A DNA stretch of 64,000 nt from a virus: the IMG/VR virus record IMGVR_UViG_3300021135_000003; one strand, 5' to 3'. Below are positions 21,658 through 46,749 of the stretch, one piece after another. The notes under the pieces were generated by a model. That model was not told the DNA's origin. It ran no database searches and was given only the letters and a program-made list of their open reading frames with translations. Every line of letters starts with the position of its first letter. Position 1 is the first letter of the stretch. The position numbers were made by a program, and so were the translations under genes.

Positions 21658-21658
21658 T

Positions 21659-23128: not shown

Positions 23129-23143
23129 ATAATGGAGTAAGTG

Positions 23144-24104: not shown

Positions 24105-24434
24105 ATGACATTATATGATTATTTGATATGGATTGTTGTTTGGATTATGGGTGCTGTATATGGATGGTATGCTAGAGAACGTCATGCAAAAAGAACTATC
24201 GAGCGTTTTGTTACAGAGATAATGCCAAAGGTTGAAGAACAATCTGATTCCCGCATCCACGTTTCAATTGAAAAACATAATGGTGTATTTTATGTTTATG
24301 ATAAAATACAAAATGAATTTATGGCTCAAGGTAAAACTCGTAGAGAGTTAGAAGATGCTCTTGCAAAAAGATATCCAAATAAATATTTTGCCGCAACAAC
24401 AGAAGATCTAAGGGTACTCAATGAGTCCCTTTGA
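24105..24434 (+). CDS. hypothetical protein with N-terminal TM helix
   Basis: 109-aa ORF with GAGG RBS. Confidence 0.7.
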   Translation: MTLYDYLIWIVVWIMGAVYGWYARERHAKRTIERFVTEIMPKVEEQSDSRIHVSIEKHNGVFYVYDKIQNEFMAQGKTRRELEDALAKRYPNKYFAATTEDLRVLNESL

Positions 24435-24804
24435 TTTTTTAAATGCAATTAATTTTACCAAAGAAGATTTGTTTGAAAAGGATCCGCAAGCAGGTAAAGA
24501 TTATAAACCTTTCATTATAAATAGAGGGTTATCGTATTTCCCCGATACCGTATTCTATGCTAACCAGATGAATCAACATGCTGGTTTAGATAAGGATATG
24601 CAGTTTTTCTTTTTCCTAAATATTATTTCGAGGAAAAAGAGATTTAGTAAGTGGTCTAAAAAAGACGCTGAAACGGAATCTCTTGAACTCGTTAAAGAGT
24701 ATTATGGGTATTCAAGTGAGAAGGCGACAGAAGCATTAAAAGTGCTGTCCGAAGAGAACTTGATTATGATAAAAGAGAAACTATATAAAGGTGGAAAATC
24801 ATGA
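24421..24804 (+). CDS. gp62: clamp loader small subunit
   Basis: PFIINRGLSYFPDT, RKKRFSKW and EYYGYS.EKA motifs. Confidence 0.95.
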   Translation: MSPFDFLNAINFTKEDLFEKDPQAGKDYKPFIINRGLSYFPDTVFYANQMNQHAGLDKDMQFFFFLNIISRKKRFSKWSKKDAETESLELVKEYYGYSSEKATEALKVLSEENLIMIKEKLYKGGKS

Positions 24805-25220
24805 CTGTTGAAATGATTTATTACGACTGGACGCCAGAGTCCATGCTTGAAGTGGTTTTACCTGAGCCTGATAACTTTCTAAAGGTTCGTGAAACTTTGA
24901 CTCGCATTGGGATTGCTTCTAGGAAAGAAAACAAATTATACCAATCTTGCCATATTTTGCATAAGCAAGGTAGGTACTTTATCGTGCACTTCAAAGAACT
25001 ATTTGCTTTGGACGGTAAAGAATCGAATATCACTGCTGGTGATATTGAGCGCAGGAATGCTATTTCTGGTTTGCTACAGGATTGGGATCTGTTAAAGATC
25101 CTAAATAATACGCAGGCTGAGCAAAAAGCATCTCTGTCTCAAATTAAAGTTGTGTCCTTCAAAGAGAAAGACCAATGGGAATTAGTACCGAAATATAACA
25201 TAGGAAAAAAATCAAAATGA
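24801..25220 (+). CDS. regA: translational repressor RegA
   Basis: FLKVRETLTRIGIAS and QSCHILHKQGRYFIVHFKELF motifs. Confidence 0.97.
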   Translation: MTVEMIYYDWTPESMLEVVLPEPDNFLKVRETLTRIGIASRKENKLYQSCHILHKQGRYFIVHFKELFALDGKESNITAGDIERRNAISGLLQDWDLLKILNNTQAEQKASLSQIKVVSFKEKDQWELVPKYNIGKKSK

Positions 25221-27947: not shown

Positions 27948-28291
27948 TTTTAGCAAGAGAACTTACAACTTGGGAAGATGGTATGGATTGTAACCATACA
28001 TATATAATGAGCGAATCAATGGATAAGATTTTTGGTTATTTCAAAAAGAATAATCCTAAAGATTTTATGATGTTTAAAAATTTTATTCGCATTGATACAA
28101 GGTATCGTAAGTTTAAAGTTATTCAACGCAACTTAAATTTTGCTGGGCAGAAACCCTCTAATCGAACTTGGGAAATTAAAGGTAGCAAGGATCACGTATA
28201 TACTGTTGAAGAAACAGAAAATGGTTTGAGTTGTAGCTGTATTGGTTTTAAATATCATGGTAAGTGTAAACATATCGAGAGTGTAAAATGA
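27944..28291 (+). CDS. hypothetical protein with C-terminal SWIM zinc finger
   Basis: CSCIGFKYHGKCKH. Confidence 0.8.
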   Translation: MILARELTTWEDGMDCNHTYIMSESMDKIFGYFKKNNPKDFMMFKNFIRIDTRYRKFKVIQRNLNFAGQKPSNRTWEIKGSKDHVYTVEETENGLSCSCIGFKYHGKCKHIESVK

Positions 28292-29595
28292 ACATCAATA
28301 AATTTTTGGATAGTCTTGCGGCAAATGCTTCACGCAACTTTAAGAAAGAACAACTAGAAGCAAACAAAGATAATGAAACTCTCCGTGAAGTAATTCGTTT
28401 GGCTCTTGATCCATTTACTCAATTTTATATCCGTAAGATTCCAGCGTATACTCCACAGACAGAACAAACTAATGTTACGTTGAGGTTTGCATTGGATTCT
28501 TTATTTGATTTATCCAGTCGTCTAGTAACAGGAAATGCGGCAATTGCTCATCTTAAAGGTATGCTAGAAGTTCTAAGCCCAGATGACGCTAAGGTTATTG
28601 AAAGAATTATTCAAAAAGATTTGAAGTGTGGGGTTCAAGTATCAACAGCAAATGATGTATGGATGGGACTCGTTCCAGAATATCCATGCATGCTTTGCTC
28701 ACCATTTGAACAGAAATTGGTTGATAAGATTAAATTCCCAGCCTATGCTCAAATGAAGATGGACGGTATGCGTTTCAATGCGATCGTTCGTGATGGTAAG
28801 TGTGAATTTAGGAGTAGAAATGGCAAAGAAATTTTATTACTTGGCAATTTGGAGCAAGAGTTTATTTCTCTTGCTGGTTCTGTTGATTGTGTTTTTGATG
28901 GTGAACTTTTGGTAATGGATGACGATAGTTGTCAGTTTATGGATCGTCAGACTGGTAATGGTATCCTCAACAAAGCAAACAAAGGAACTATATCAGCTGA
29001 AGATGCAGCAAAGGTTCATGCTTCTGTTTGGGATTTAATTCCTTATGTTCAATTTATTGACGGACATTGCGGAACTCCATATTCAAAAAGGTTCTCAACT
29101 CTTGAGGCGATTGTAAATAAACAACCAGCCAAAGATAAAAAGATTTGGGCTGTTACTTCAACCATTGTTGAAACGATTGAACAGGCTCAGGAGATTTTTC
29201 AAGATTATCTATCAAAGGGATATGAAGGTATTATTCTTAAAGATGGTAATGGTGTTTGGGAAGATAAACGTAGCAAGACTCAGATTAAATTCAAAGGCGA
29301 ACTAGAATGTGATCTTAAGATCGTTGCAATTGAAGAAGGTACTGGTAAGTATGCAGGAATGCTGGGTAATATTGTTTGCGAATCAGCTGATGGTAAAATT
29401 AAAGTAAACGTAGGCTCTGGTTTTAATGATACACATCGCAAGAATTATGGTCAAGAAATAGTTGACAAAATCGTGGCAATCAAGTATAATAGTAGAATAA
29501 AGAATAAGTTGGGAGACGAGAGTTTGTTTCTTCCAATCTTTGTTGAAATTCGTGATGATAAAGATATCGCAGATAGTTCAAAGGACATAAAATGA
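28288..29595 (+). CDS. gp30: ATP-dependent DNA ligase
   Basis: KMDGMR, FDGEL, EGIILK, KFK and SLFLPIF motifs. Confidence 0.96.
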   Translation: MNINKFLDSLAANASRNFKKEQLEANKDNETLREVIRLALDPFTQFYIRKIPAYTPQTEQTNVTLRFALDSLFDLSSRLVTGNAAIAHLKGMLEVLSPDDAKVIERIIQKDLKCGVQVSTANDVWMGLVPEYPCMLCSPFEQKLVDKIKFPAYAQMKMDGMRFNAIVRDGKCEFRSRNGKEILLLGNLEQEFISLAGSVDCVFDGELLVMDDDSCQFMDRQTGNGILNKANKGTISAEDAAKVHASVWDLIPYVQFIDGHCGTPYSKRFSTLEAIVNKQPAKDKKIWAVTSTIVETIEQAQEIFQDYLSKGYEGIILKDGNGVWEDKRSKTQIKFKGELECDLKIVAIEEGTGKYAGMLGNIVCESADGKIKVNVGSGFNDTHRKNYGQEIVDKIVAIKYNSRIKNKLGDESLFLPIFVEIRDDKDIADSSKDIK

Positions 29596-29957
29596 AAGTA
29601 GCAATCAATACATGTTTCGGTGGGTTTGGTATTTCAAATGTAGCGTTTGAGAAATTGCTTGAGCGTAAGGGTATCGCATTCGATAAGGTGCCAGCAAAAT
29701 GGCCAATTCGTGGTAACGACTCAGACTATTACAAAGCTGGTAGTCCACAATCTGATGCGACATATCTAAGTGAGTATGAATTCTATGAACAACGCAATGA
29801 TCCAGATTTGATTGCAGTGATTGAAGAATTGGGTAAAGAAGCATGGGGTTTTGCAGCAGAACTAGCAATCGTTGATATTCCTGATGATGTCGAATGGCAT
29901 ATTCACGAGTACGATGGTCTTGAGCATGTAGCAGAAAATCATAGGACTTGGGGTTAA
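29592..29957 (+). CDS. conserved phage hypothetical
   Basis: KVAINTCFGGFGIS, RNDPDLIAVIEELG and EYDGLE motifs. Confidence 0.8.
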   Translation: MKVAINTCFGGFGISNVAFEKLLERKGIAFDKVPAKWPIRGNDSDYYKAGSPQSDATYLSEYEFYEQRNDPDLIAVIEELGKEAWGFAAELAIVDIPDDVEWHIHEYDGLEHVAENHRTWG

Positions 29958-31456
29958 TGATTGATGCTGTTATTCTTAGTGGTGGTCAAGATATGCCAAA
30001 CGACTACCCTAAGATACAAAGATCGCTTGGTCCATACAGGGTTGCTTCTGCTTTAGAAAAAGCAGGATACACTACATGTGTAATTGATTATATTCAGTAT
30101 CTTTCAGTAGAAGAAATTATCAATGCTTTGAAAAATGTTTTAACACCTAATACTTTATGGGTTGGTATTTCTTCTACTTTTTTCTACTCACCATTAGCAA
30201 AGAAGGTTGGTCTTTCTAGGATGTACCAAAATATATCTTATGAAAAAATTTCTAAAGTATATGAATTTATTAAAGCGAACAGTAATGCTAAGATTGTTTT
30301 TGGTGGAGCATATGCCCTTCAAGCACACGCTGATCCGATGATTGATTATTACATTGCTAGTTATGCTGATGTGACTGTTGTAGAATTAACTGATTTCCTT
30401 TCAGGTAAGAAAATATATCTTGAACATTCAACTGAGATTGATATTGGTGGAACTAAGTCTGTGTTGATTGATTCTGGTAAGTATAAAGAACCAGAAATGA
30501 ATTCATTGGAAACCTTTTGGCATAAAAAAGAATACAACATATTACCAACCGAATCATTGCCTATTGAATTTGCTAGAGGGTGTATTTTTAAATGCAAGTT
30601 TTGTAACTATCCCCTTCTTGGTAAAAAGAAAGGTACATACATTAGAGATATGTCTCAGGTTCGTGATGAGATAATTAAAGTGTGGGAAGAGAATGGAACT
30701 GATTCATTTTATATGACAGATGATACCTTCAATGATGATAATGATAAGATGGAAGAATTTCATAAGTTGTTTACATCGTTGCCGTTCAAACCTAAGTTTA
30801 GCGCATTTCTTCGACTTGATTTGATTGATAGATTCCCGCATCAAGCAGATCTTCTTTTAGAAGCTGGTTTGATTGGTAACTTTTTTGGGATTGAATCATT
30901 CAATCATAAAAGTGCTAGAGCAATTGGTAAAGGTTTGCACCCAGATAGAATTAAGAAACGTCTAAACTGGGTGAGAGAAAAATGGGATGGTAAGGTTAAT
31001 ACTGTAGTAGGATTAATTGTTGGTTTACCGTATGATGATGAGAAGTATTTTAGAGAACTTGAAACATATCTTATGTCTTCAGAATACCCTGCTCAGAGAA
31101 CTGTTATTAATCCTCTGCATATTTTTGATAGGAGCAAAGGTGTTAATCTTTATGGTTCTGAGTTTTCAGTTAACTCAGAAGTCTATGGATATAAGTTTGA
31201 TTCGAATGGTAGATGGTATCATGAAGAACAGGGTTTTGGTTTTGATGATATGATAAATGTTTCAAACTATTTTTCAGAATTGATGAGCAGTAAAAATAAA
31301 GTTAGTGGATTTGAGATGTTGACATATATGAATCTTGGTATTTCGTTGAAAGATATATTAACATACACTGAAGATGAATTAATACAACGCTATGATATCC
31401 CAAAATTAAATAATGAAAAATTGACAATGTATAAACAAATGATTGGAGCAGTATAA
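29957..31456 (+). CDS. B12-binding-domain radical SAM protein
   Basis: RGCIFKCKFC (CxxxCxxC), N-terminal LG.YRVAS.L and GISSTF, DDTFN and GIESF motifs. Confidence 0.88.
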   Translation: MIDAVILSGGQDMPNDYPKIQRSLGPYRVASALEKAGYTTCVIDYIQYLSVEEIINALKNVLTPNTLWVGISSTFFYSPLAKKVGLSRMYQNISYEKISKVYEFIKANSNAKIVFGGAYALQAHADPMIDYYIASYADVTVVELTDFLSGKKIYLEHSTEIDIGGTKSVLIDSGKYKEPEMNSLETFWHKKEYNILPTESLPIEFARGCIFKCKFCNYPLLGKKKGTYIRDMSQVRDEIIKVWEENGTDSFYMTDDTFNDDNDKMEEFHKLFTSLPFKPKFSAFLRLDLIDRFPHQADLLLEAGLIGNFFGIESFNHKSARAIGKGLHPDRIKKRLNWVREKWDGKVNTVVGLIVGLPYDDEKYFRELETYLMSSEYPAQRTVINPLHIFDRSKGVNLYGSEFSVNSEVYGYKFDSNGRWYHEEQGFGFDDMINVSNYFSELMSSKNKVSGFEMLTYMNLGISLKDILTYTEDELIQRYDIPKLNNEKLTMYKQMIGAV

Positions 31457-32634: not shown

Positions 32635-33203
32635 TGTTTATATTTGACGTAGAAACTTTGGGTGTTGAATCTAATGCTGTTGTTTTATCGGCAGCATTGC
32701 TTCACTTTGACCCAGAGAAACGTCCAACCTATCAAGACTTGCTAGACAATGCGTGCTTTGTTAAGTTGAACGCAAAAGATCAAGCAAAACGTCTTGGTAG
32801 AACTGTTGATGTGAGAACACTAGAGTGGTGGGCAAACCAACACGAATATGTTCGTAGTGTTTCTTTTGATGCAAATTCAATAGATATGTATGCAGAAGAT
32901 GCAATTAAAGAGTTACATAATTATATGAACAAATATATTAATGCAAATGGTCAAACTATGTGGGCAAGGGGTTCTCTTGATCAAATGGTAATTGATTCGC
33001 TTGCTAAAAAACTTGACATGCAACCTATTACTGGGTATAATATGTGGAGGGACGTTAGAACTGCAGTTGATTTACTCAGTGGTGGAACTAATGGTTATTG
33101 TGAAGTGAATCATCCCTTATTTGAACGAGCGCAAGTTATTAAGCACCATCCTGTTCATGACTGTGCTCTTGATGCTATGATGTTAATGTATGGAAAGAGT
33201 TAA
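32634..33203 (+). CDS. DEDDh 3'-5' exonuclease (DexA-like)
   Basis: FDVETLG, TLEWW, WARG..D, RDVRT and HHPVHD motifs. Confidence 0.85.
   Translation: MFIFDVETLGVESNAVVLSAALLHFDPEKRPTYQDLLDNACFVKLNAKDQAKRLGRTVDVRTLEWWANQHEYVRSVSFDANSIDMYAEDAIKELHNYMNKYINANGQTMWARGSLDQMVIDSLAKKLDMQPITGYNMWRDVRTAVDLLSGGTNGYCEVNHPLFERAQVIKHHPVHDCALDAMMLMYGKS
33013..33041 (+). promoter_or_regulatory. intragenic consensus sigma70 promoter upstream of gp43
   Basis: TTGACA-17 bp-TATAAT. Confidence 0.8.
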
Positions 33204-35689
33204 TGGAATTTTATACCTCAGTAAACCCTATCGGAGATCGAATCTTTGTTAGAGGTGTTGAGAATGGTAAACGCTATCAACGTAAGTTAGAGTTTAGTCC
33301 TACTCTTTATGTGACTGCCAAGAAACCCTCCAAGTGGAAGACACTGGAGGGAACATTCGTTGATGAGATTAATCCAGGCACAATCAAAGATACCAGAGAA
33401 TTTATTAAACGCTATGATGGTGTTGAAGGATTCGCTGTATATGGAAACTCAAACTATGCGTATCAATACATAAGCGATAATTATCAGCATGATATCAATT
33501 GGGATATGGAACAGATTAAAGTGTTCACGATTGATATTGAAACTTCAACAGAGAATGGTTTCCCTGATATTAAATCAGCCAATGAAGAAATTCTTCTTAT
33601 CACAGTTAAAGAACTTCAGACAAAACGTATTATTACTTTTGGAAGTAAAGCATATGTCAATCCACGTGAAGATGTAATCTATGTTAACTGTAAGAATGAA
33701 CAAAACCTACTAACCCAATTCCTAGAATTTTGGACTAAGAGCCATCCAGATGTTATCACTGGTTGGAATACTGACTTCTTTGATATGCCATATCTTATCC
33801 GTAGGATTGAGCGTGAACTTGGTGATGGCGAATCTAATAAGATGAGTCCATGGGGATATGTTAATGAACGAAAGACTTTCATTAAAGGTAATGAAGAGAT
33901 TCACTACGATATCGTTGGGATTGCTCAACTAGATTATCTTGAACTCTATAAGAAATATACATATTCTAAACAGGAAAGTTATCGTTTGGATTATATTGCT
34001 GGTGAAGAACTTGGTGACAAGAAGAAAGTAAATCCAGGAGATTCATTTAAAGATTTCTATACTAATCACTGGCAGCAATTCGTTGATTATAATATTCATG
34101 ACGTAGAGTTGGTTGATAAGTTAGAAGACAAGATGCGTCTTATCGAATTGCATTTGACCATGGCTTATAATGCCAAGATTAATTTCGAGGATGTTTATTC
34201 GCAGGTTCGCATGTGGGATACGATTATCTATAATCATCTACGTAAAAAAGGTATTGTTGTTCCTGCCAAGAGTCACTCAGGCAAAGATGCTCAATTTGAG
34301 GGTGCATATGTTAAAGATCCAATTATTGGTCTTCATAAATGGATGGCTTCTTTTGACTTGAACTCATTGTATCCGCATTTGATTATGCAGTATAACATTA
34401 GTCCTGAAACTTTGACATCGGAAAAGATTAGCGTTACTGTTGATAAACTTTTGAATCAAGAAATTGATACCACATATGTTAAGCAACGAGATCTTGCTTT
34501 GACTGCCAATGGATGGACTTATACTAAAGAGTTTAAAGGTTTCATGCCAGAGTTAATGGAACAGATGTATAAAAATCGTTCTAAGTTCAAGAAACAAATG
34601 CTTGCCATCCAACAAGAGTATGAAAAAGATAAGTCTAAGAAACAATTGCTGAAAGATATTTCTCGTTTGAATAATCTGCAGATGGCTATGAAGATTGCTT
34701 TGAACTCTGCTTATGGTGCAATGGGTAATCAGTATTTCCGTTACTTTGATATTCGTATGGCTGAGGGTATTACTACTTCTGGTCAGTTGTCTATTCGTTG
34801 GATGGCCAACAAGTTAAATGCCTTCATGAATAAAACATTGAAGACTGAAGGTAAAGATTATGTAGTTGCAATTGATACTGATTCAATCTACCTTACTCTT
34901 GAAACATTAGTTGAACAAACTTGCGCTGGCAAAACTGATGAACAGAAAATTAAATTCATGGATAAAATCTGTGAAGATGTTTTCCAACCATTCATTGATT
35001 CAGGTTACCAAGAACTAGCAGACTATATGAATGCGTATAGTCAGAAGATGCAGATGAAGCGTGAGGTTCTAGCTGACAAAGGTATCTGGACTGCCAAGAA
35101 ACGATATATTCTTAATGTGCATAATTCAGAGGGTGTTCAATATGAGAAACCTAAAATTAAAGTTATGGGTCTTGAAATGGTCAAGTCCTCTACTCCTGCA
35201 GTTATTCGTGATAAATTGCGAGATTCGATTGAGGTTATTCTTAAAGGAAATCAATCACATTTACAGAACTACATATTAGAGTATCGTAAAGAGTTTGAGA
35301 AACTTCCTGTTGAAGAGATTGCGTTTCCTCGTGGTGTTAATGGTATGAAACAATACGCTGGTTCACCTATCTATTCTAAGGGAACACCAATTCATGTTCG
35401 TGGTGCTTTATTGTTTAATCACTATACTAAGAAGATGGGTCTTGATAAAAAGTATCAACCAATTCGTGATGGTGATAAAATTCGATTTGTTTATGTTCGC
35501 AAACCAAATCCATTCCAAGAAGATGTTATTGCATTCAGTCAAGAGTTACCACCAGAGTTTGAATTGAACTCCTACATAGATTATGATAAACAATTTGAAA
35601 AGGTATTTCTCGATGCCCTACAAATTATTATTGGTTCGCTTGGTTGGAATACATCAGAACAAAGTTCATTAGAGGATTTCTTTGGATGA
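33203..35689 (+). CDS. gp43: family B DNA polymerase
   Basis: DIET, SFDLNSLYP, KIALNSAYG, DTDS and KKRY motifs; C-terminal SLEDFFG clamp-binding tail. Confidence 0.99.
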   Translation: MEFYTSVNPIGDRIFVRGVENGKRYQRKLEFSPTLYVTAKKPSKWKTLEGTFVDEINPGTIKDTREFIKRYDGVEGFAVYGNSNYAYQYISDNYQHDINWDMEQIKVFTIDIETSTENGFPDIKSANEEILLITVKELQTKRIITFGSKAYVNPREDVIYVNCKNEQNLLTQFLEFWTKSHPDVITGWNTDFFDMPYLIRRIERELGDGESNKMSPWGYVNERKTFIKGNEEIHYDIVGIAQLDYLELYKKYTYSKQESYRLDYIAGEELGDKKKVNPGDSFKDFYTNHWQQFVDYNIHDVELVDKLEDKMRLIELHLTMAYNAKINFEDVYSQVRMWDTIIYNHLRKKGIVVPAKSHSGKDAQFEGAYVKDPIIGLHKWMASFDLNSLYPHLIMQYNISPETLTSEKISVTVDKLLNQEIDTTYVKQRDLALTANGWTYTKEFKGFMPELMEQMYKNRSKFKKQMLAIQQEYEKDKSKKQLLKDISRLNNLQMAMKIALNSAYGAMGNQYFRYFDIRMAEGITTSGQLSIRWMANKLNAFMNKTLKTEGKDYVVAIDTDSIYLTLETLVEQTCAGKTDEQKIKFMDKICEDVFQPFIDSGYQELADYMNAYSQKMQMKREVLADKGIWTAKKRYILNVHNSEGVQYEKPKIKVMGLEMVKSSTPAVIRDKLRDSIEVILKGNQSHLQNYILEYRKEFEKLPVEEIAFPRGVNGMKQYAGSPIYSKGTPIHVRGALLFNHYTKKMGLDKKYQPIRDGDKIRFVYVRKPNPFQEDVIAFSQELPPEFELNSYIDYDKQFEKVFLDALQIIIGSLGWNTSEQSSLEDFFG

Positions 35690-36850: not shown

Positions 36851-37102
36851 ATGAAAGTTAAAAAGTTTTATGCAGAATGGTGTGGACCATGTAAAGGGTT
36901 ATCAATGGTAATTGCTGGAGCAGGAGATAAGATTACTATTCCAATTGAGAATATTGATATTGATACTAACATTATGGAATCAGTTCAGTATGATGTTAGA
37001 TCTGTTCCCATGTTAGTTCTCGTTGATGATAATGGAAAAGAGATCAAACGTCTAAATGGTATGGTAAATGAAACACAATTGTTAGAATTTTTAAAGGTAT
37101 AA
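36851..37102 (+). CDS. thioredoxin
   Basis: WCGPC motif; AGGAGG RBS. Confidence 0.93.
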   Translation: MKVKKFYAEWCGPCKGLSMVIAGAGDKITIPIENIDIDTNIMESVQYDVRSVPMLVLVDDNGKEIKRLNGMVNETQLLEFLKV

Positions 37103-37103
37103 T

Positions 37104-38177
37104 ATGGCAAGCATCCTAGACAAAATCAAGAAGAACTCAACTATCAAAGACTCTGCGATTCTATCTGAATCAAAGTTCTTTAAGAAGAAGGATATGATTC
37201 CTACTTCAGTTCCAATTATCAACGTAGCCTTATCAGGTCGCCTTGATGGTGGACTTACTCCAGGTATTACTATGTGGGCTGGACCATCGAAACATTTTAA
37301 AACTGCCTTCAGTTTGTTGATGGCTAAATCTTATTTGGACAAATATCCCGATGCAGCACTTCTTTTCTACGATTCTGAATTTGGTACTCCTCAGTCTTAT
37401 TTTGATACCTTTGGCATTGATACATCCCGAGTGGTTCACACTCCTCTTACAGACGTTGAACAATTAAAGATTGATATCATGCAACAACTACAAAACGTAG
37501 AGCGTGGTGATCATCTTATTATTGTTATTGACTCTATTGGTAATCTTGCTTCTAAGAAAGAAGTTGAGGATGCATTGGAAGGTAAGTCTGTAGCAGATAT
37601 GACCAGAGCAAAACAAATGAAGTCTTTGTTCCGTATGGTAACACCACACTTGAACTTAAAAGATATTCCTTTGGTTGTTGTTAATCACACCTATATGGAA
37701 ATTGGTTTATTTCCAAAAGCAATTGTCGGTGGTGGTACTGGCGCAATGTATTCAGCAGACAATGTCTATATCCTTGGACGTCAACAAGAAAAAGAAGGAA
37801 CAGAGATTGTTGGTTATAACTTTATTATCAACGTAGAGAAGAGTCGTTATGTTAAAGAAAAATCTAAGATTCCTGTTAGTGTTACTTTTGAAGGTGGTCT
37901 TAGCAAGTGGTCTGGTTTATTGGATGTTGCTCTTGAGTCAGGACATGTTATTAAGCCATCTAATGGTTGGTACTCAAAAGTGGATCTTGAGACTGGGGTT
38001 GTAGAAGATAAAAAGTATCGTATTAAAGATACTGACTCAAAAGATTTCTGGCTACCAATTCTTACAAGTAAATCATTCTATGATTTTATCAAGAACAAAT
38101 ATTCAATTGGTCAGGGTGAAGTAATGATGCGTGATGACCTTGATGAAGCACTTGAGGCATTGGCATTTGATGAGTGA
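37104..38177 (+). CDS. uvsX: RecA-like recombinase UvsX
   Basis: GPSKHFKT, YDSEFG, DSIGNLAS and VEKSR motifs. Confidence 0.97.
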   Translation: MASILDKIKKNSTIKDSAILSESKFFKKKDMIPTSVPIINVALSGRLDGGLTPGITMWAGPSKHFKTAFSLLMAKSYLDKYPDAALLFYDSEFGTPQSYFDTFGIDTSRVVHTPLTDVEQLKIDIMQQLQNVERGDHLIIVIDSIGNLASKKEVEDALEGKSVADMTRAKQMKSLFRMVTPHLNLKDIPLVVVNHTYMEIGLFPKAIVGGGTGAMYSADNVYILGRQQEKEGTEIVGYNFIINVEKSRYVKEKSKIPVSVTFEGGLSKWSGLLDVALESGHVIKPSNGWYSKVDLETGVVEDKKYRIKDTDSKDFWLPILTSKSFYDFIKNKYSIGQGEVMMRDDLDEALEALAFDE

Positions 38178-38487
38178 CCATCTTGCAAAACCTTATATCC
38201 TTGTTGAGAATCGCAAAACAGGACATGATGCGATAAAGTTGACTTCTGGACCATTTCAGGGTATAATATATTCTTACGGTAAAGTTAAGTTTGAAGAGCA
38301 ACATGATGATACTTGCAAACTTAATTTTGAGTATGAAGTCCATAATAATCAAATAGAATATAACAAAGAAGAATTCGAATTCTATATTGGTGAACTTCTT
38401 CAGTTTATTATGGCAGAAGAACTACAAAGAAATAATATTACTTACACTGGCGGAATTGATGAGAATAGAAACGAAGATTCTGAGTAA
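38170..38487 (+). CDS. gp40-like protein (head vertex assembly chaperone position)
   Basis: Between uvsX and gp41 as in T4; GIIYSYGKV.F.E motif. Confidence 0.6.
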   Translation: MSDHLAKPYILVENRKTGHDAIKLTSGPFQGIIYSYGKVKFEEQHDDTCKLNFEYEVHNNQIEYNKEEFEFYIGELLQFIMAEELQRNNITYTGGIDENRNEDSE

Positions 38488-39847
38488 TCTTGTATATGAT
38501 GAGCAGTATTGTCGTAAGGTAATCCCATTCATTAGAACAGATTACTTTTCAGAAAGAAAAGAAGCGATCCTTGCCAAAGTTATTTTGGATTTCTTTACGA
38601 AGTATAATAAACCACTGACTAAAGAAATTCTATCAATTGAGGTAGGAAACCGAACTGACATTAATGACAAAGAACTTTCTGAGATTAATAGTTATGTAGA
38701 TACTATGACTCATGAGGATGTTAATGAATCATGGATGTTGGAACAAACTGAGAAGTTCTGTAAAGATAAGGCTGTCTATAATGCAATTCTACACTCGATC
38801 CGAATCATTGATGGCGGAGATAAAGTTAACACCAAAGATTCCATACCTTCTATCCTTTCTGATGCTCTTGCCATCTCTTTCGATAATCACGTTGGTCATG
38901 ATTACATCGAAGATAGTGATGCACGTTATGACTTCTATCACCGAATTGAAGAAAAGATTCCTTTCGATTTAGATATGTTTAATAAGATTACCAAAGGTGG
39001 TTTATCCAAGAAAACTTTAAACATTGTTTTGGCTGGTACTGGTGTTGGTAAATCTTTGTTTATGTGTCACGTTGCTGCTGGAGTATTAACTGCTAGTAAG
39101 AATGTTCTTTACATTACTATGGAAATGGCTGAGGAAAGAATCGCTGAGCGTATTGATGCGAACTTGTTGAATCTTACTATGGATGAGTTGAAAGTTATTG
39201 ATAAAGATATCTTTGATAATCGTATCAATAAGATCTCTGGTAAAACACAGGGTAAATTAATCGTTAAAGAATATCCAACTGCAGGTGCTCATGCTGGTCA
39301 CTTTAGAGCATTGCTTGAAGAGTTGAAGTTGAAGCGTGAGTTTCTTCCTGACATTATCTTCATTGACTATCTAAACATTTGCGCAAGTCAGCGTATGAAG
39401 CAAGGTGGAAGTATTAATTCTTATACATATATTAAGAGTATCGCTGAAGAGTTACGTGGTTTGGCAGTAGAATATAATGTTCCAATTGTTTCTGCCACGC
39501 AAACTACTCGAAGCGGATTCACAAATAGCGATCCAGGTTTGGAAGATACTTCTGAATCGTTTGGATTACCAGCCACTGCTGACCTTATGTTTGCGCTAGT
39601 ATCTAATGAAGAACTTGAACAGTTGAATCAGATTGTTGTTAAGCAGTTAAAGAATCGTTATAACGATCCAAGTTTTTACAAGAGATTCGTCATTGGTGTT
39701 GATAGAGCCAAGATGAAGTTATATGATGTTGAGGCATCTGCTCAAGTAGGTTTATCTGACTCAGGTCAAGATGATGTTCCTATGTTTGACAAAAGTGAAT
39801 TTGGAAAGCGTCAGAAAGCAGAAGGTTTCAGTGGGTTTAAGTTTTAG
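38459..39847 (+). CDS. gp41: replicative helicase
   Basis: AGTGVGKS, KEYPT, DYLNIC, SATQTTR and KQLKNRY motifs. Confidence 0.97.
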   Translation: MRIETKILSNLVYDEQYCRKVIPFIRTDYFSERKEAILAKVILDFFTKYNKPLTKEILSIEVGNRTDINDKELSEINSYVDTMTHEDVNESWMLEQTEKFCKDKAVYNAILHSIRIIDGGDKVNTKDSIPSILSDALAISFDNHVGHDYIEDSDARYDFYHRIEEKIPFDLDMFNKITKGGLSKKTLNIVLAGTGVGKSLFMCHVAAGVLTASKNVLYITMEMAEERIAERIDANLLNLTMDELKVIDKDIFDNRINKISGKTQGKLIVKEYPTAGAHAGHFRALLEELKLKREFLPDIIFIDYLNICASQRMKQGGSINSYTYIKSIAEELRGLAVEYNVPIVSATQTTRSGFTNSDPGLEDTSESFGLPATADLMFALVSNEELEQLNQIVVKQLKNRYNDPSFYKRFVIGVDRAKMKLYDVEASAQVGLSDSGQDDVPMFDKSEFGKRQKAEGFSGFKF

Positions 39848-39856
39848 GAGAATAAT

Positions 39857-41173
39857 ATGGTAAAAGTAATTGTAGCTGAACAGAAACACAATTGTGAAGA
39901 TCTTCTTGGTAAGTTTGTTGACGAATCACATTATGATCATCTTATCGAAGAAGATACTGATGTTTATATGCCACCACAATTTGGTGAAGATCCAATCTCA
40001 GAGAAACGAATTGTATTAAAGTTTAGGAAAAACTATTTTAGTAAAGAACAACAAGATGCCGCATATGTCGGACTTAGAGAAGCAGCGATTCGCACAGAGA
40101 ATCGTGGACTTGCTTCTGGTATCAAAGATGGCATTCTTGCCACAACTGAAGGTCGCGAGTGGGTCACAAACTACCAACAGGAAATGATGGATGCGTTGCT
40201 AAAGAATCGAAACTCTGCTCTTGATGAAGAAGATGTTATTGATGTTATTCGTGCCAAGTATCCTACTGAAACTGATAAGCGTATGGCAGGTGGTAGTGGT
40301 AAAAACAACGTATGGGTTATCTCACGTTTCCGTGGAACTAAGTTTGATTTTGAAGCATGGCTAGATACTATCAAACCACTTGGTCGTCAGAATCGTGCTG
40401 AGGCATGTGAAGATGTTATGGAAATGATTAGTACCACTACCTATGGTACTGCAGTTAATTCTGGTATCGCTGGTTGGTTCGATCGTTATCCTCGCATTCC
40501 TTATGGTCGTGCCACTTCCTATACTCGTGACAACTTTGATAAGTTTGTAATGTCATATCCATTCCTGCAGAATCTTGCTGAAGGATTTAAAAATCTTTTA
40601 CCTCAACGCTATGCTGCACAAATGAAAGCAGCAAACAAACTAGATCCAAGGTTCTTAGTTCCAGGAACACCATTCACAACAGTAACTGTTAATAAAACAT
40701 TTAGAACTGCGGCACATAGAGATGCTGGTGATTTGAATGAGGGTTTATCTAATCTGTTAACATTATCCAATGATGGTAATTACACTGGTGGATATTTGAT
40801 TGCTCCTGAGTATCGAATTGCAGTTAATCCACGTCCAGGAGATTTGCTTCTAATCAATAATCACGAAGTTATGCATGGCAATACACCTATTGTTTGCGCA
40901 GAAGGTTCTGAGCGTATATCATTGGTTGTGTATTTCCGTGAGAAAATGTTAGAACTTGGTTCTTTTGAATATGAAGACTGTCGTTATAATTTTGTTGAAC
41001 ATCGTAGACGTAATCACGAGCATCCAATGTGGCAAAAACTTTGGAATGGTGTATCAGAATCTATGTGGACTAGTCAAGAATGGTATGATTACTGCGAAGA
41101 AAAACTTGGTCGTGAGGAATTAATGAAATATCATCCAGAAGCAAATTCTTCTTCACTTGAGGATTTCTTTTAA
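39857..41173 (+). CDS. TET/JBP-family 2OG-Fe(II) DNA base dioxygenase
   Basis: PFTTVTVN..FRTAAHRDAGD (HxD), DLLL...HGNTPI and RISLVVYFRE motifs; located in the modification cluster. Confidence 0.8.
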   Translation: MVKVIVAEQKHNCEDLLGKFVDESHYDHLIEEDTDVYMPPQFGEDPISEKRIVLKFRKNYFSKEQQDAAYVGLREAAIRTENRGLASGIKDGILATTEGREWVTNYQQEMMDALLKNRNSALDEEDVIDVIRAKYPTETDKRMAGGSGKNNVWVISRFRGTKFDFEAWLDTIKPLGRQNRAEACEDVMEMISTTTYGTAVNSGIAGWFDRYPRIPYGRATSYTRDNFDKFVMSYPFLQNLAEGFKNLLPQRYAAQMKAANKLDPRFLVPGTPFTTVTVNKTFRTAAHRDAGDLNEGLSNLLTLSNDGNYTGGYLIAPEYRIAVNPRPGDLLLINNHEVMHGNTPIVCAEGSERISLVVYFREKMLELGSFEYEDCRYNFVEHRRRNHEHPMWQKLWNGVSESMWTSQEWYDYCEEKLGREELMKYHPEANSSSLEDFF

Positions 41174-41877
41174 TGTGTAGCGTTATTGGTGCTTTGATTC
41201 AGAATCCTACTGAAAAGGATTTTGAATCTATCCGTAAAGTATTTCTTGAGTCAAAGATTCGAGGAATGCACGCAACTGGTTTATCTTATATTAAAGATAA
41301 TAAGATTATTACATTTAAAGAAGCAGTTCCTGCAGATAAATTTATTCATTTAGATAATTTAGAGGAGATGGTCAATGACGATGGTAATCTTTACCTTATT
41401 GGTCACTGTAGATATTCTACTAGCGATTTATTGTATAATCAGCCGATAGCAAGCGAAACCCATTCTATTGTTCATAATGGAGTTATCACTCAAGAACTTC
41501 CAGAGAACTGGAGTAAGATATTTCATTATCCTTGTGAAACAAAGAATGATTCTGAATTAGTTTTACATTCTGATAATGCTCTTGGTGAATATCCAGATGC
41601 ATCTATGGCAGTTTGTGAGTTGTCACTAAAAAAAGAACTTACTGTTTTTAGAAATGGTAAACGTCCATTATATTTGACTTCTTTAGTAAATGGAGTTATA
41701 ATTACTTCTACTGCAGATATTCCTAAACGTGCAGGTATTAGAATGCCAGCAGTAGAAGTGCCAATGAATACTTACCTCACGTTTGATTCAAATATGACAA
41801 TGAATGTTAATCTTGTTAAGACTAACAAACCAGATTTACAAAAGGTAAACTATGAGACTGAAGAAATATCCAACTGA
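41173..41877 (+). CDS. class II (Ntn) glutamine amidotransferase
   Basis: N-terminal Cys2, RG.HATG, GHCRYST, NQP, HNGVI and DSE motifs. Confidence 0.88.
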   Translation: MCSVIGALIQNPTEKDFESIRKVFLESKIRGMHATGLSYIKDNKIITFKEAVPADKFIHLDNLEEMVNDDGNLYLIGHCRYSTSDLLYNQPIASETHSIVHNGVITQELPENWSKIFHYPCETKNDSELVLHSDNALGEYPDASMAVCELSLKKELTVFRNGKRPLYLTSLVNGVIITSTADIPKRAGIRMPAVEVPMNTYLTFDSNMTMNVNLVKTNKPDLQKVNYETEEISN

Positions 41878-42733
41878 TAAATTTACTTACGGAATGGAGA
41901 TAGAGTGGGGTGATGTGCCTCGCTCTTTTTCAATTCCAGAACATCTCGGAACTTGGGAACACTCAGAACGAGATATTATTAACTTAAGAGAGCCATATCA
42001 ATATGTCTGCGCTGACCCACTTGGTGAATCTCCTCCAGTCGGTGGGGAAATTAATACTAAACCGACTAAGACTTGGGAAGAGCAGGTTGATCGCTACTTT
42101 GAACTCAAACAGTTATTTGAGAAGGAAGGACACCCACCTACTGTTGGTGCTACTGCTCATACTCATATTCATTGCCGTGTACCGAATCTCCGAAATGATA
42201 TCAATGCTCTGAAGCGTTTGACAAAGTATATTAAAGAAAACCAACACCAAGCAGTTGAACACGTCTATGGTTACTTTGAACATAATCAAATGAAAGGTGC
42301 CAAAGGCGCAAAAATGTATTTGAAGTTTGATGGTGGTCGAACTCTGCCTGACTATATGGCTGATAACATTATTAATCTAGCGACTGACTTTGATTCATTC
42401 ATTAAGATGCACGCTGCAGGTAAAGATGGAGTATCAATGGGTCGCCCATTCCGCTACGCTATTAATATGTACGCACTGAAGCATATCGATACGGTAGAGT
42501 TTAGATTGTTCCGTGGTACAATGGATCGTACGGAACTTGAATCGTGTTTCCGATTTGTTCAAGACTTTCTTGATGCTGCGTTGAATACTGGTGAATCAGT
42601 AGTACAATTAATTTCAAATAATAATTATAAATTCCCTCCAATGATTTGGGATCTTCATCAGTTTATTGGTTGGGAGAAAACAAAACATCCAGAAGATCGT
42701 GGAGAAAAAGTAAGAACATATGTTGAAGTATAA
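41852..42733 (+). CDS. amidoligase (COOH-NH2 ligase, Amidoligase_2-like)
   Basis: TYGMEIE, GGEIN, HTHIH and RYAIN...TVEFR.F.GT motifs. Confidence 0.82.
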   Translation: MRLKKYPTDKFTYGMEIEWGDVPRSFSIPEHLGTWEHSERDIINLREPYQYVCADPLGESPPVGGEINTKPTKTWEEQVDRYFELKQLFEKEGHPPTVGATAHTHIHCRVPNLRNDINALKRLTKYIKENQHQAVEHVYGYFEHNQMKGAKGAKMYLKFDGGRTLPDYMADNIINLATDFDSFIKMHAAGKDGVSMGRPFRYAINMYALKHIDTVEFRLFRGTMDRTELESCFRFVQDFLDAALNTGESVVQLISNNNYKFPPMIWDLHQFIGWEKTKHPEDRGEKVRTYVEV

Positions 42734-43226
42734 AGTAATAGAAGATTGTGTATCAAGAGATTTGCAAAACAAATATTTGGAGATCTCAGAAGGTATACAT
42801 TGGACCTATAATAAAACTTGTATACATCCTTTAGATATTCCAATTCAGAATGAAACTACATTTGATGTTGGACAACTAACATGTAGAGTTCCAGAACACG
42901 ATTATAATTTGTTCCTCCCTCTTCTAGATCATTTTGAACAATACTCTAAAATTAATCGCATAAAATATAATTTGTTATGGAGATGTTCTGAAACAAATAA
43001 TAGACATACAAGTTTACATAAAGATGGTGATGACCAATGTATGAGTGCAGTATATTATGTTAATGATTCTGATGGAGATACCATCATAATTGATGGTGAT
43101 GATGAATATAGAATTAAACCAAAGAAGGGATCTATTCTAATATTTCCTGCGCATCTAATTCATGCCTCATCTAACCCATCAAATGCGTTTGAGAGAATTT
43201 GTATAAATTTGGTAGTAACAAAATGA
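42720..43226 (+). CDS. 2OG-Fe(II) oxygenase
   Basis: HKD, YYVNDSDGDT, HASSNP and RICIN motifs. Confidence 0.85.
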   Translation: MLKYKVIEDCVSRDLQNKYLEISEGIHWTYNKTCIHPLDIPIQNETTFDVGQLTCRVPEHDYNLFLPLLDHFEQYSKINRIKYNLLWRCSETNNRHTSLHKDGDDQCMSAVYYVNDSDGDTIIIDGDDEYRIKPKKGSILIFPAHLIHASSNPSNAFERICINLVVTK

Positions 43227-43774
43227 AATTACTAAATTGCCCACGTGCGGATTTTATCGCAGCAATAACTACAGACAAAGAAGATAACTTTGCTAAGACG
43301 TTTGTTGCCAAAGCAGATATGCAAGACCAATGGGATTATTGTATTGGCGCATTCGATGGTAATGAATTAACTGCTGCAATTATCACCACAATATCAAAGA
43401 CCAAACCTCATGTTGCAAACCTTCAACTGTTACATACATTTGCAAAACATAGAGGTAAAGGTTCAGCTCGATTACTTTGTGAAGATTCATTGAAGCGAGC
43501 AAGAGCCACTGGTGCTACATACTTCAGAGTATCTTCCGAGAAGACGGCAGTTGGTTTCTATGAACGATTGGGTTTTAAGTTTTGGGGTACTCAAAAGAGT
43601 GGTTGCCAATTATCCATATTCAGGATAAATGGAGATAATTATTCAGAAGCTGATTACGACTACTCCGATACAATTATCAACAAGGCTGTTAATCGCAAAG
43701 GTAAAGGTGGCTGTGTAACTCTGTTTAGTCTTGCAGAGGATCAGAAACAACTTGACTTTCATTCATTTTTGTAG
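43223..43774 (+). CDS. GNAT acetyltransferase
   Basis: HRGKGSAR acetyl-CoA loop and AVGFYERLGF motif. Confidence 0.88.
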   Translation: MKLLNCPRADFIAAITTDKEDNFAKTFVAKADMQDQWDYCIGAFDGNELTAAIITTISKTKPHVANLQLLHTFAKHRGKGSARLLCEDSLKRARATGATYFRVSSEKTAVGFYERLGFKFWGTQKSGCQLSIFRINGDNYSEADYDYSDTIINKAVNRKGKGGCVTLFSLAEDQKQLDFHSFL

Positions 43775-43799: not shown

Positions 43800-44120
43800 A
43801 TGACACACTTGAGAGAAGAAAATTTGGCAGTTGTTACAAGAAGAATTGCTGAGGATGCATGGGTAACTAATCTTGATGGAACAAAATCAAGAGCAGTATC
43901 TTGGTGCAAATGCTGTAGGGTTCATAAACCTTTAAGTGCATTTTACTTAAAATCAAAGAGTACTAGAAAACATAAAAATGATGTTCGAGGATATTGTTGC
44001 ATTTGTTTTGATGAACAAAACAAAAAAGCAAAAGAAATTCGTGAAGAACGAAATGCAGTCAAACAATTGAATATTCTGATCAATGAATTAAAGATAGAAT
44101 TTGAGACTGCGAATCAGTAA
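43800..44120 (+). CDS. zinc-finger hypothetical protein
   Basis: CKCC..KPLSAFY...CCIC pattern. Confidence 0.7.
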   Translation: MTHLREENLAVVTRRIAEDAWVTNLDGTKSRAVSWCKCCRVHKPLSAFYLKSKSTRKHKNDVRGYCCICFDEQNKKAKEIREERNAVKQLNILINELKIEFETANQ

Positions 44121-44683
44121 TGAATTTCGAACATATTTTTCCATCAGTTATAGGTTATGAGATTAATAAAGATTTAACAGATAACATTTTGCTTATTGCA
44201 AAAGAATATCTTTCTGATGATTCTAAGATAACCTATGAATGGAATTATAAAAACACATATGGTAATATCTTAATAGATGATAAATTAAATTTTGTATATG
44301 AGAAGATAGCTGAACTATCAAATACATATTTGATAACCTCTAATATTAAACCACCAGAAAAATTAGAAATACAACTTTTCTTTAGTGAAATATACGGAAA
44401 CGACACTCATGTTAAACACTCTCATCCAGGAGCATTACTTTCTGGATTATTTTATTTGACTGTTCCAGATGATGCTGCTCCAATTATTTTTTATGATACG
44501 AGCCCACATTATGATTATATTCCGTATAATGCATTAAATCCATCTGATGACCGTAGGCAATATATTATAAATCCAAAAGAAGGTATGGTTCTAATATGGA
44601 ATTCTTGGTACCAGCATGAAGTTCCAAAATCAAATAGTATTAAACCAAGAATTACAGCAGTGTTTAATGTTGCTAGAAAATAA
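44120..44683 (+). CDS. putative 2OG-Fe(II) oxygenase (TIGR02466-like)
   Basis: HSHPGALLSGLFY, P.EG....W.S...HEV and RITAVFN motifs. Confidence 0.82.
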   Translation: MNFEHIFPSVIGYEINKDLTDNILLIAKEYLSDDSKITYEWNYKNTYGNILIDDKLNFVYEKIAELSNTYLITSNIKPPEKLEIQLFFSEIYGNDTHVKHSHPGALLSGLFYLTVPDDAAPIIFYDTSPHYDYIPYNALNPSDDRRQYIINPKEGMVLIWNSWYQHEVPKSNSIKPRITAVFNVARK

Positions 44684-45699
44684 TGGATTACAGACAACCT
44701 CAAAATAATAGAGAAGCGTTCATTCGCTGGTACGCATGGTCATTGAAGTATGATGACTGTGATCCAGCTGTTTGGTGCACGAACTATCTCAATAAGCGTT
44801 ACGAGCATAATGATGAACAACGTCTTTGGCTCGCTTGGCTTTACGGTAACACTTATCAACTACCAACTGCGTGGGTATTGATGAATGAATTTCCTGATTA
44901 TGAATTAGCAACAGTTGATAGAATTACGCAGTGGAACTCAACAAATTATAAACGATTACGTTACCAAACTGATACCAAGTGGAACAAGGGGCATCTCCCT
45001 GCCATGTTTGCTTCATATCAGCAATTTATTGGTAACAAAACTCAACGAGAAAGAATGGAAGGGTTTTATGGAGACAATGAAGAGACAAACTTTGATAACC
45101 TGTGGGAAAGCGTTAAGTCTGGGCTGCATAAGTTTGGTCGCTATTCCACTTGGTTTTATCTTCAGCATCTTAAGCATACCGCTGGTATTCTTATCAGCCC
45201 TACTAGTCTCATGCTGGATGATTATGATGGCTCTCGGTCTCATCGTAATGGATTATTATGCGCCCTCGGCAGACATTACGATATGGATAGAAAACTCACT
45301 GAACAAGAGTATGCAACTCTTGAGTCAGAAGCCAGATCTATTCTCATCGAAACCAAAGATAGATTCCCAGATTTGGAAACGCAAATAGATTTTTTTACAA
45401 TGGAAACCTGTCTGTGTTCGTTTAAGAAAATCTTTAGAGCACATCATGGACGTTACCTTGGTTACTACTTAGATCGTCAGGCTGAAGAGATTATTAAAGC
45501 AGAGGGTGATGGTTGGTATGGTATTGATTGGGATGTTCTGTGGCAAGCACGTGAAGAAACTATTGACTTACGTCTAGATCACAAAAGAGGAATCGATAAA
45601 GAAAAGTTTCCTGCATTTATAAATTCAGGTAAAATAGAAAACTTGGATTGGATGTTTGATGATGAAGAACCTATGTTAATTGGATTGGAGAATTTTTAA
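44683..45699 (+). CDS. amino acid:DNA transferase-like protein (aGPT-PPlase clade 2, HhH glycosylase-like fold)
   Basis: DCDP, EQRLWLAWLY, KFGRYSTWFYL (HhH-like) and METCLCSFKK motifs; near the P-loop kinase. Confidence 0.75.
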   Translation: MDYRQPQNNREAFIRWYAWSLKYDDCDPAVWCTNYLNKRYEHNDEQRLWLAWLYGNTYQLPTAWVLMNEFPDYELATVDRITQWNSTNYKRLRYQTDTKWNKGHLPAMFASYQQFIGNKTQRERMEGFYGDNEETNFDNLWESVKSGLHKFGRYSTWFYLQHLKHTAGILISPTSLMLDDYDGSRSHRNGLLCALGRHYDMDRKLTEQEYATLESEARSILIETKDRFPDLETQIDFFTMETCLCSFKKIFRAHHGRYLGYYLDRQAEEIIKAEGDGWYGIDWDVLWQAREETIDLRLDHKRGIDKEKFPAFINSGKIENLDWMFDDEEPMLIGLENF

Positions 45700-46151
45700 T
45701 GGCTATTACTAAAGGTCAAATGACTGGACTTACTGGTGCTATGTATGAAGATATGAATCCTGCTAGTGTTTCAATTTCAAATACTGGTGCTATTACTGGA
45801 ACTATTATTGGAGCAGCAGGTAGTACGATTACTACTGGAACAGGAATAAGTTCTATCTCAATTCGAACAAGTGCTGATGAAATCTTTGATAGATATTCTT
45901 TAAATGAGTTTCTTGTTGAGCATCGTGTTCAAGAATTTGAACTTATGAAACTCCGTGAAACCACTGTTGACTATGCTGATGTTATTAAAAATAATCTAGC
46001 AAAGACTGCTTCTAAAGAAATTATCAAGAAAATGACCTTCACAAAGAAACATGAGATTGATAGTGATACTCATTCATTCCGTGGACGTGTTTGGGTATTT
46101 ACGAAAGATGAACTAAACAAAATGATTGAGGAGATCAGAAATGGCATTTGA
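45699..46151 (+). CDS. hypothetical protein with Thr/Gly/Ser-rich N-terminus
   Basis: Coupled ORF with GGAG RBS. Confidence 0.7.
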   Translation: MAITKGQMTGLTGAMYEDMNPASVSISNTGAITGTIIGAAGSTITTGTGISSISIRTSADEIFDRYSLNEFLVEHRVQEFELMKLRETTVDYADVIKNNLAKTASKEIIKKMTFTKKHEIDSDTHSFRGRVWVFTKDELNKMIEEIRNGI

Positions 46152-46749
46152 AGAACGTATCGGCGCAACTGATATTATTACATTCGAAAGAACTACCATG
46201 GAAACAAAAGAACGAAAGATAGTTGCTGTCGGTGGATCTCCTGGAACTGGAAAGACTACGTTATTCCGTAAATATATGGAAGATAAACAGTGGATCGGAG
46301 TTGAGCCAGCAAAATTAGTATCAACAATGTATAATACCGAACGAGATCTTTATATCCTTGGTAAATACGAAGAGGGTGAAACCTTTGCTGGAACCGATCG
46401 CCTTTCTATGGCTGTTCAACCACCTCTTCAAGAATGGGTCGCTTCCCATAACTGCAATATCCTTTTCGAGGGAGATCGGGTTTTCAACCAATCATTCCTA
46501 GAGTTCTGCATGGGTCTCCCAAATACCAAGCTAGAAGTGGTATTTCTAAAGGCTCCCAAAGATATTTTAGAACAACGCTATAAAGATCGTGGATCTGACC
46601 AGTCAGAACAATTCCTAAGAGGAAGAGAAACTAAATATAGTAACTTGATGTCTAATTTTGAACTTATGCCATATATTACTGAGTTTGTAAACACTAACTT
46701 AGAGGAGCAGGGGAAGGTTCTTGCATTTTTGGAGAAGCAGTTTAGTTAA
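46141..46749 (+). CDS. P-loop nucleotide/DNA kinase (5-hmU DNA kinase-like role predicted)
   Basis: GGSPGTGKT, LGKY....FAGTDRLSMAVQP, FEGDR and R..RGS.Q motifs. Confidence 0.78.
   Translation: MAFEERIGATDIITFERTTMETKERKIVAVGGSPGTGKTTLFRKYMEDKQWIGVEPAKLVSTMYNTERDLYILGKYEEGETFAGTDRLSMAVQPPLQEWVASHNCNILFEGDRVFNQSFLEFCMGLPNTKLEVVFLKAPKDILEQRYKDRGSDQSEQFLRGRETKYSNLMSNFELMPYITEFVNTNLEEQGKVLAFLEKQFS

Follow-up and report, generated by a model that had tools for sequence, protein, structure and literature searches.

The locus described here raises a simple question: why should an oxygenase of the TET/JBP family end in the same short peptide as the DNA polymerase of the virus that encodes it? The DNA analysed is a stretch of 64,000 nucleotides (nt) from IMG/VR virus record IMGVR_UViG_3300021135_000003, referred to below as the window. 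It has the genes of a T4-like myovirus without a close cultured relative; these all lie on the + strand, to which all window coordinates refer, and its GC content is 36%. The two genes in question encode the oxygenase (5mYOX; 39857–41173, 438 residues) and the family-B polymerase gp43 (33203–35689, 828 residues; Pfam DNA_pol_B; phrog_262, E-value (E) 0). From sequence comparisons and a predicted complex, we propose that the terminal SSSLEDFF of the oxygenase is probably a linear motif that docks on the gp45 sliding clamp and would tether DNA hypermodification, in which the oxygenase would act first, to loaded clamps.

Positions 41126–41173 encode KYHPEANSSSLEDFF followed by a stop codon, and form the end of the oxygenase open reading frame (ORF), which finishes in NSSSLEDFF. 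The proposed docking peptide, SSSLEDFF, comprises residues 431–438 (41147–41170) and follows a variable linker after the sequence K-Y-H-P; LEDFF are the final five residues, with the stop at 41171–41173. gp43 ends in EQSSLEDFFG, in which SSLEDFF is encoded by 35663–35683, and this tail occupies the same position as the tail KASLDFLFG of T4 gp43. An earlier note on this DNA had pointed out the shared SSLEDFF, and reading both ends confirmed it; SLEDFF occurs nowhere else in a six-frame translation of the window. The note had also described the codons as different. This is true only of the first Ser (AGT and TCT) and of the Leu (TTA and CTT); GAGGATTTCTTT is identical in the two genes and 17 of the 21 bases agree overall. 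Its further remark that weaker versions end the amino-acid:DNA transferase (ADDT, ending MLIGLENF) and the GNAT acetyltransferase (ending QKQLDFHSFL) was borne out as well, these ends being conserved as L-[DE]-x-F and degenerate here. The C-termini of the GATase, the amidoligase-like protein and the P-loop kinase encoded in the same cluster do not carry the pattern.

The gp43 tail, Q-S-S-L-E-D-F-F, fits the full consensus of the PCNA-binding PIP box, Q-x-x-[LIM]-x-x-[FY]-[FY]; its Gln is not conserved among gp43 relatives. The oxygenase tail, S-S-S-L-E-D-F-F, fits only the hydrophobic core of this consensus. Judged by its residues, the tail form of this lineage is the PCNA-PIP-like L-x-x-F-F.

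The tail is strongly conserved. Among the best 120 of 2573 database homologues of the oxygenase, which are 67–92% identical to it, all 120 end in [ST/D][LI][ED]xFF followed by zero or one residue, and the preceding residues vary; the conservation across homologues by which the earlier note had proposed to judge its idea is thus present. In an alignment of 52 sequences F437 and F438 are invariant, and residues 427–433 form a variable linker following the conserved K-Y-H-P. In the fetched loci of relatives the strict tail pattern closes 157 of 3039 coding-strand ORFs, against an expectation of about 2 based on how often it occurs internally; on the opposite strand it closes 4 of 4700. Among 67 distinct 3′ ends of the gene, the Leu never changes although six codons are used for it, neither Phe changes although both TTT and TTC occur, and the Glu is written GAG and GAA about equally often. 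Because the Leu and the two Phe are invariant despite their mixed codons, the pattern of substitution indicates that selection on the tail acts on the amino acids and not on the DNA.

These codons also bear on a quite different explanation, in which the shared peptide is a by-product of the DNA: GAGGATTTCTTT would serve as a ribosome-binding site and spacer for a coupled downstream gene, and similar gene ends would give similar peptides. The arrangement of the genes lends this some substance, as GAGGA stands about 9 nt before the overlapping ATG of the next gene in both cases (35686 and 41173), 12 bases are identical, and in 64 of the 67 TET relatives the start codon of the following gene overlaps the stop codon or is no more than about 10 nt away. 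A ribosome-binding site would not be expected to preserve a Leu written in six codons, a mixture of TTT and TTC, or as many GAA as GAG codons for the Glu. Furthermore, the third position frequently holds Ser, whose codon there (AGT) does not resemble a Shine-Dalgarno (SD) sequence, the gp43 tail is kept despite gaps of 0–290 nt to the next gene, and the tails of T4 gp55 and gp33 and the link to gp45 would be left unexplained. We give this explanation next to no probability; as the main cause of the tail it is ruled out by the codon analysis.

We note that the genes after gp43 (ATG at 35686, GGATGA) and after the oxygenase (ATG at 41173, TAATG) both overlap the upstream stop, and that the tail codons of gp43 and the oxygenase contain an SD-like GAGGA, so that the tail DNA has two uses. 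The listed TTG start at 35644 of the 2-oxoglutarate (2OG) oxygenase gene after gp43 is probably too far upstream.

Among representatives of the TET family at 50% identity, the long-form enzymes mostly carry the tail and the forms of about 300 residues do not. In many of these short forms an EELERAK helix is followed by an end of their own, roughly [RK]-x-x-G-D/T-P-L-[YWF] (representatives P0284, P0293, P0305, P0315, P0323, P0337, P0363 and P0386). From its sequence this motif may dock on a different partner, for example ParB or a host beta clamp.

If the tail binds the clamp, it should keep company with gp45 and resemble the tail of the resident polymerase. Both the clamp and its loader are encoded in the window, as is required of a genome with clients of the gp45-tail class: gp45, the proposed docking partner (21001–21657; phrog_223, E 2e-69; precomputed PF09116), matches T4 gp45 (1CZD, E 7.6e-24) and RB69 gp45 (1B77/1B8H), and the loader consists of the large subunit gp44 (23141–24097; phrog_168, E 5e-122) and the small subunit gp62 (24421–24804; phrog_225, E 9e-44). 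In 36 loci of a first IMG/VR set that contain both genes, gp43 has an SLExFF-like end in all 36 and the TET protein in 31; of the other TET proteins, one is truncated at the end of its contig and four (loci L078–81) end in NRLVES. A second, more distant set of loci agrees on the tails of both proteins.

The tails also vary together. In phage C48C1 gp43 ends in ATLEDFFG and TET in ISLEEFFV, and in DLP_6 gp43 (ATLDSFFA), TET (ATLGDFFV) and a TET-associated glycosyltransferase (TAGT; DLSSFFN) all carry FF. In Cr30, gp43 (DLSSLFD), TET (GATLF) and a TAGT-like protein (DLSKLF) all have LF instead of FF, and at locus L093 LF closes both TET (..AGLF) and ADDT (..VTLF). TET tails share 5.26 identities with the tail of their own polymerase and 4.73 with shuffled ones, a value reached in about 1 of 10,000 shuffles, uncorrected for ancestry. 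Further sampling of this covariation by IMG/VR scans with the divergent representatives P0252 and P0249 gave no matches, and the contigs of P0252, P0254 and P0257 are too short to carry gp43.

Seven distinct cultured phages have a TET homologue. The tail is present in all four that encode gp45 (DLP_6, Cr30, C48C1 and Melnitz) and absent from all three that do not (S-CBWM1, HTVC112P and P12024L); in HTVC112P a ParB gene adjoins the TET gene. In Melnitz the tail, NLNDFLGE, is borne by a short-form TET that is only distantly related (25% identity), a sign that it was gained independently.

Some lineages depart from this pattern. In one sublineage (L074 and L078–81) TET has lost its tail and ends in NRLVES, but the abutting TAGT gene is tailed, with the end RSTLEEFF (L081:9986–12103, for instance). 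The presence of a tail on TAGT where the adjoining TET has none suggests that one handle may serve an enzyme pair. In L100, L101 and L116, TET ends in KKKVSLWS, the next gene in TLEDIV or TLENIV, and gp43 in ASLSAFFK; these are degenerate or altered tails within a single lineage.

The distribution of the tail implies a shared partner without naming it, and the tail might instead dock on something other than gp45; gp32, the clamp loader and a scaffold in a modification complex are candidates. A tailed TAGT beside a tailless TET would also agree with one handle per enzyme complex. Two observations favour gp45: the tail is absent where gp45 is absent, and the gp43 tail lies at the position of the T4/RB69 peptide whose partner is gp45. 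A third comes from structure prediction. The gp45 trimer was modelled together with TET residues 390–438 in three runs, with three controls. The complex scored 0.62 and the best control 0.23; of 80 solved complexes 58 attained that mark, as did 2 of 110 mismatched pairs. The runs share at least 42% of their contacts, with a partner pLDDT (predicted local distance difference test) of at least 43. The confident interface is limited to TET residues 431–438, with the closest contacts made by L434 and F437, and the gp45 residues contacted are 32, 35–39, 101–107, 175, 193–195, 207 and 209–212. Residues 101–107 align with NKPIPFP of T4 gp45, which is the interdomain connector, and we take the contact region to be the pocket seen in the RB69 clamp–peptide structure. 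The gp45 alignment used for the complex was shallow (93–99% identity). The model that the earlier note had put forward as a check is favourable, in that it places the TET tail in the interdomain pocket of gp45 and the controls score far lower. We consider a different partner quite improbable.

Besides TET and gp43, nearly all matches to the strict pattern in the relatives are DNA-modifying enzymes. Tails are found on TAGTs (L079, L082, L097, L102, L114, DLP_6 and, weakly, Cr30), D12 Dam methyltransferases (C48C1, L051), a GT1 glycosyltransferase (L073), GNATs (L075–77, L103) and ADDTs, which can carry full tails (GLEEFFV in L103, GLEEFMV, NLEEFLV). A Mom-like enzyme of Melnitz (L152:12562–13377; PF25680, E 7.6e-49) is extended at its C-terminus and finishes in TATLEGFF. 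Each of the 24 ADDT homologues from the first set of loci has a GLExF end, in some cases with one more residue after it, and GNAT homologues end in VDLNSFL, VKLDGF or VNLEGF, the GNAT of the window having the weaker variant L-[DE]-x-F. At L103 four tailed genes stand in a row, encoding a GNAT, an ADDT, TET and a protein of 231 residues (L103:7981–8673) with a full tail, NTLEEFFV, and a weak HNH match (E 0.002, below cut-off); to judge by its sequence, this last protein could be a nuclease that docks on the clamp. When the whole genomes of DLP_6, Cr30, C48C1 and Melnitz were scanned, no further real client emerged, the only other match being the structural protein gp26. The C5-methyltransferase that adjoins gp43 in Melnitz lacks a tail.

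It could be argued that the tail has nothing to do with the replisome and is a general signal at the C-terminus (a degron, an aid to solubility or folding, or an autoinhibitory peptide, for example), and that it resembles the polymerase end by convergence. Short acidic-hydrophobic ends are indeed common, and loose patterns match proteins of other kinds: the thioredoxin-like gene at 36851–37102 (QLLEFLKV), whose end belongs to a conserved terminal helix, and the baseplate hub protein gp26 (PF12322). The latter has a G-h-x-x-F-F end in four T4-like phages (L129:2670–3371, L138:682–1392, L146:1101–1820 and L152:3060–3761), which is structural and fits the Pfam profile to its last position. The kinase end LAFLEKQFS is likewise a false positive of the loose pattern. 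The strict motif behaves differently. Among real genes it is confined to gp43 and to DNA-modifying enzymes of at least seven unrelated folds, with the HNH-like protein of L103 as a weak exception; it follows the lineage-specific variants of the polymerase; and it sits on a variable linker and not within a fold. A generic signal is highly unlikely to be the explanation.

Returning to gp45 docking, several points weigh against it. Neither the shuffle test nor the phyletic counts are corrected for shared ancestry. Some TET proteins have no canonical tail, those of L074 and L078–81 ending in NRLVES and those of L100, L101 and L116 in VSLWS. The SD-like GAGGA in the tail codons of both genes, described above, belongs here too. 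The passing model may reflect memory of solved clamp–peptide complexes such as RB69 1B8H, and its alignments are uncalibrated; because such complexes have already been solved, its score may stem from similarity to them and not from actual binding. Finally, the T4 alpha-glucosyltransferase (alpha-GT) is the only T4-family modification enzyme for which binding to gp45 had been published, and the 2004 in vitro report of that interaction was not reproduced in 2026 by pull-downs in vitro or in vivo, whose constructs carried C-terminal His tags (PMC13216743).

Taken with these reservations, conservation, selection, the tracking of polymerase and gp45 and the complex model together support in silico the earlier note's proposal that the oxygenase rides the clamp. 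In such a mechanism gp44/62 would load gp45 trimers onto replicating or nicked phage DNA, and the oxygenase would hook one of the three gp45 pockets through L434 and F437 on its flexible linker. Held by the clamp, it would slide along freshly made duplex, oxidising its base, and downstream enzymes that act on the polymer would use the same handle: ADDT and GNAT here, and TAGT, Dam, Mom-like and GT1 enzymes in relatives. The "modification line" suggested in the note gains weight from these relatives, which bear the full tail on TAGT, GT1, Dam, Mom-like, GNAT and ADDT enzymes. From this mechanism we infer coupling of modification to replication and the fork, processivity, and a preference for phage over host DNA.

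In a bolder version gp45 would be indispensable for activity: some phage thymine dioxygenases would form a third, "replicative-clamp-dependent" subclass that it must activate, with the trimer pockets as an assembly line. gp45 would take the role that ParB has for the ParB-dependent 5mYOXs, and the pockets of one trimer would hold oxygenase, transferase and acyl- or glycosyltransferase in succession, so that hypermodification would be finished on phage DNA just behind the fork. Activation by gp45 would explain why ParB-less clade C1 enzymes are inactive when expressed alone in E. coli. We offer this version tentatively and think it somewhat unlikely.

The oxygenase scores 86.5 bits against Pfam PF12851 (gathering cut-off 34.9, E 1.5e-24) and matches phrog_24024 (E 9e-149). 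About 190 additional residues at its N-terminus make it a long-form enzyme. H287, D289, H340 and R353 are invariant in an alignment of 52 homologues; by analogy, H287, D289 and H340 would be the HxD...H iron ligands and R353 the 2OG-binding Arg. The AlphaFold2 model of the protein has a pLDDT of 71.8, and its last block is of low confidence. Its substrate is probably thymine and its product 5-hydroxymethyluracil, the pathway being one of thymine modification, because the cluster contains a kinase and an ADDT and no C5-methyltransferase; this combination has been given as a rule of thumb for thymine as substrate (PMC13229309).

The modification cluster starts directly 3′ of gp41 (38387–39847, which has nucleotide similarity to annotated cyanophage gp41 genes). 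The oxygenase gene is followed by genes for a class-II glutamine amidotransferase (GATase, 41173–41877; Pfam GATase_6), an amidoligase-like protein (41852–42733; weak Amidoligase_2 match), a small 2OG oxygenase (42720–43226), the GNAT (43199–43774; Pfam Acetyltransf_10, E 1.5e-11), a second 2OG oxygenase (44120–44683), the ADDT, also called AADT (44683–45699; Pfam PF18724, E 3.8e-22) and the P-loop nucleotide kinase (46126–46749; Pfam Ploopntkinase3, E 8.6e-7). A Pfam scan found no C5-methyltransferase domain in the cluster and, over all ORFs between 35644 and 47465, no ParB domain, an interval that accordingly lacks the adjacent ParB-like gene by which ParB-dependent 5mYOXs are recognised.

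Upstream, the replication module also contains regA (24801–25220), an ATP-dependent ligase (28288–29595) and a gene (37104–38177) that occupies the slot of the UvsX recombinase by gene order alone, a label unconfirmed by any search. The module has two unusual inserts: a tryptophan-halogenase-like flavoenzyme (21629–23128; PF04820, E 4.7e-98) between gp45 and gp44, and a radical-SAM protein (29948–31456; 502 residues; weak match to a B12-binding domain) between the ligase and gp43. The gp41 helicase has a C-terminus of its own, F-x-G-F-K-F, which is kept in more than 70 relatives and is unlike the clamp tail; on sequence grounds it is probably a handle for another partner in the replisome. The candidate gp55 (10298–10936; weak Sigma70_r2 match) ends in ..GIDSILSTDSVEEEKQKD, without a clear aromatic tail.

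Hypermodification after replication is a race against host nucleases, in which nearly all target bases of new phage DNA have to be modified first. How pathways of the TET type manage near-complete modification, and why they do not use pre-replicative nucleotide pools, is regarded as an open question (PMC13229309). If our proposal is correct, a portable clamp handle would concentrate these enzymes and make them processive on DNA that carries phage-loaded clamps. Tailed enzymes would then need gp45 and its loader for full activity, whether in heterologous hosts or in vitro, which would be a practical point when such enzymes are mined from metaviromes. The Stenotrophomonas phage DLP_6, the Caulobacter phage Cr30 and the Methylophilales phage Melnitz are culturable systems in which clamp tails could be tested. 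The clients of gp45 would extend from replication and late transcription to DNA modification, paralleling DNMT1 and PCNA.

The closest known system is that of T4 and RB69. In T4 (NC_000866) gp43 ends in KASLDFLFG, gp55 in PSLDFLYEAND and gp33 in TLDFLL, and a scan of the whole genome with the T4-type pattern finds no other real gene. It is by this C-terminal LDFL motif that gp55 and gp33 attach to gp45 (PMC9690074). The tails described here resemble them in lying at the extreme C-terminus, in the order (S/T)-L-acidic-aromatic, in the flexible linker, and in occurring in a genome with gp45 and gp44/62; the clamp in the RB69 clamp–peptide structure 1B8H is a homologue of the gp45 of the window. 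They differ in the motif, which is the PIP-like L-x-x-F-F (QSSLEDFF in gp43) against L-D-F-L-F in T4, and in their clients: the polymerase and transcription factors in T4 and RB69, DNA base-modifying enzymes here. No modification enzyme of T4 itself is tailed, the motif being absent from the C-termini of both its alpha-GT and its beta-GT (NC_000866). The work on alpha-GT shares with ours the idea of a DNA-modifying enzyme on the clamp during replication; alpha-GT is without the tail motif, whereas here the motif is explicit and conserved.

The ParB-dependent phage thymine dioxygenases, exemplified by 5mYOX176 with ParB176, also have GATase, P-loop kinase and AADT genes as neighbours, and 5mYOX176 needs an accessory DNA-clamp-like protein to act on double-stranded DNA; ParB-less members of clade C1 are inactive in E. 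coli for a reason that is unknown (PMC13229309). The present system is alike in pairing a phage TET/JBP enzyme with these genes. It differs in that there is no ParB among the scanned neighbours, and in that the proposed accessory would be the replicative clamp, reached through a C-terminal peptide.

The third comparison is with DNMT1, whose PIP box binds PCNA and favours action on newly replicated DNA (PMC9690074). Here too a DNA-modifying enzyme would be tethered to a replication clamp by a short peptide of the Q-x-x-h-x-x-a-a type. The clamps (PCNA and gp45) and the enzymes are different, and the setting here is viral. The PIP motif of DNMT1 is internal and N-terminal, whereas the tail lies at the extreme C-terminus. 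In the literature searched, which included few subscription journals, no paper came up that describes such tails on TET, TAGT, Dam or Mom enzymes. Both this kind of motif and its binding partner have precedents in gp43, gp55 and gp33, and DNMT1 with PCNA provides one for DNA methylation coupled to a clamp.

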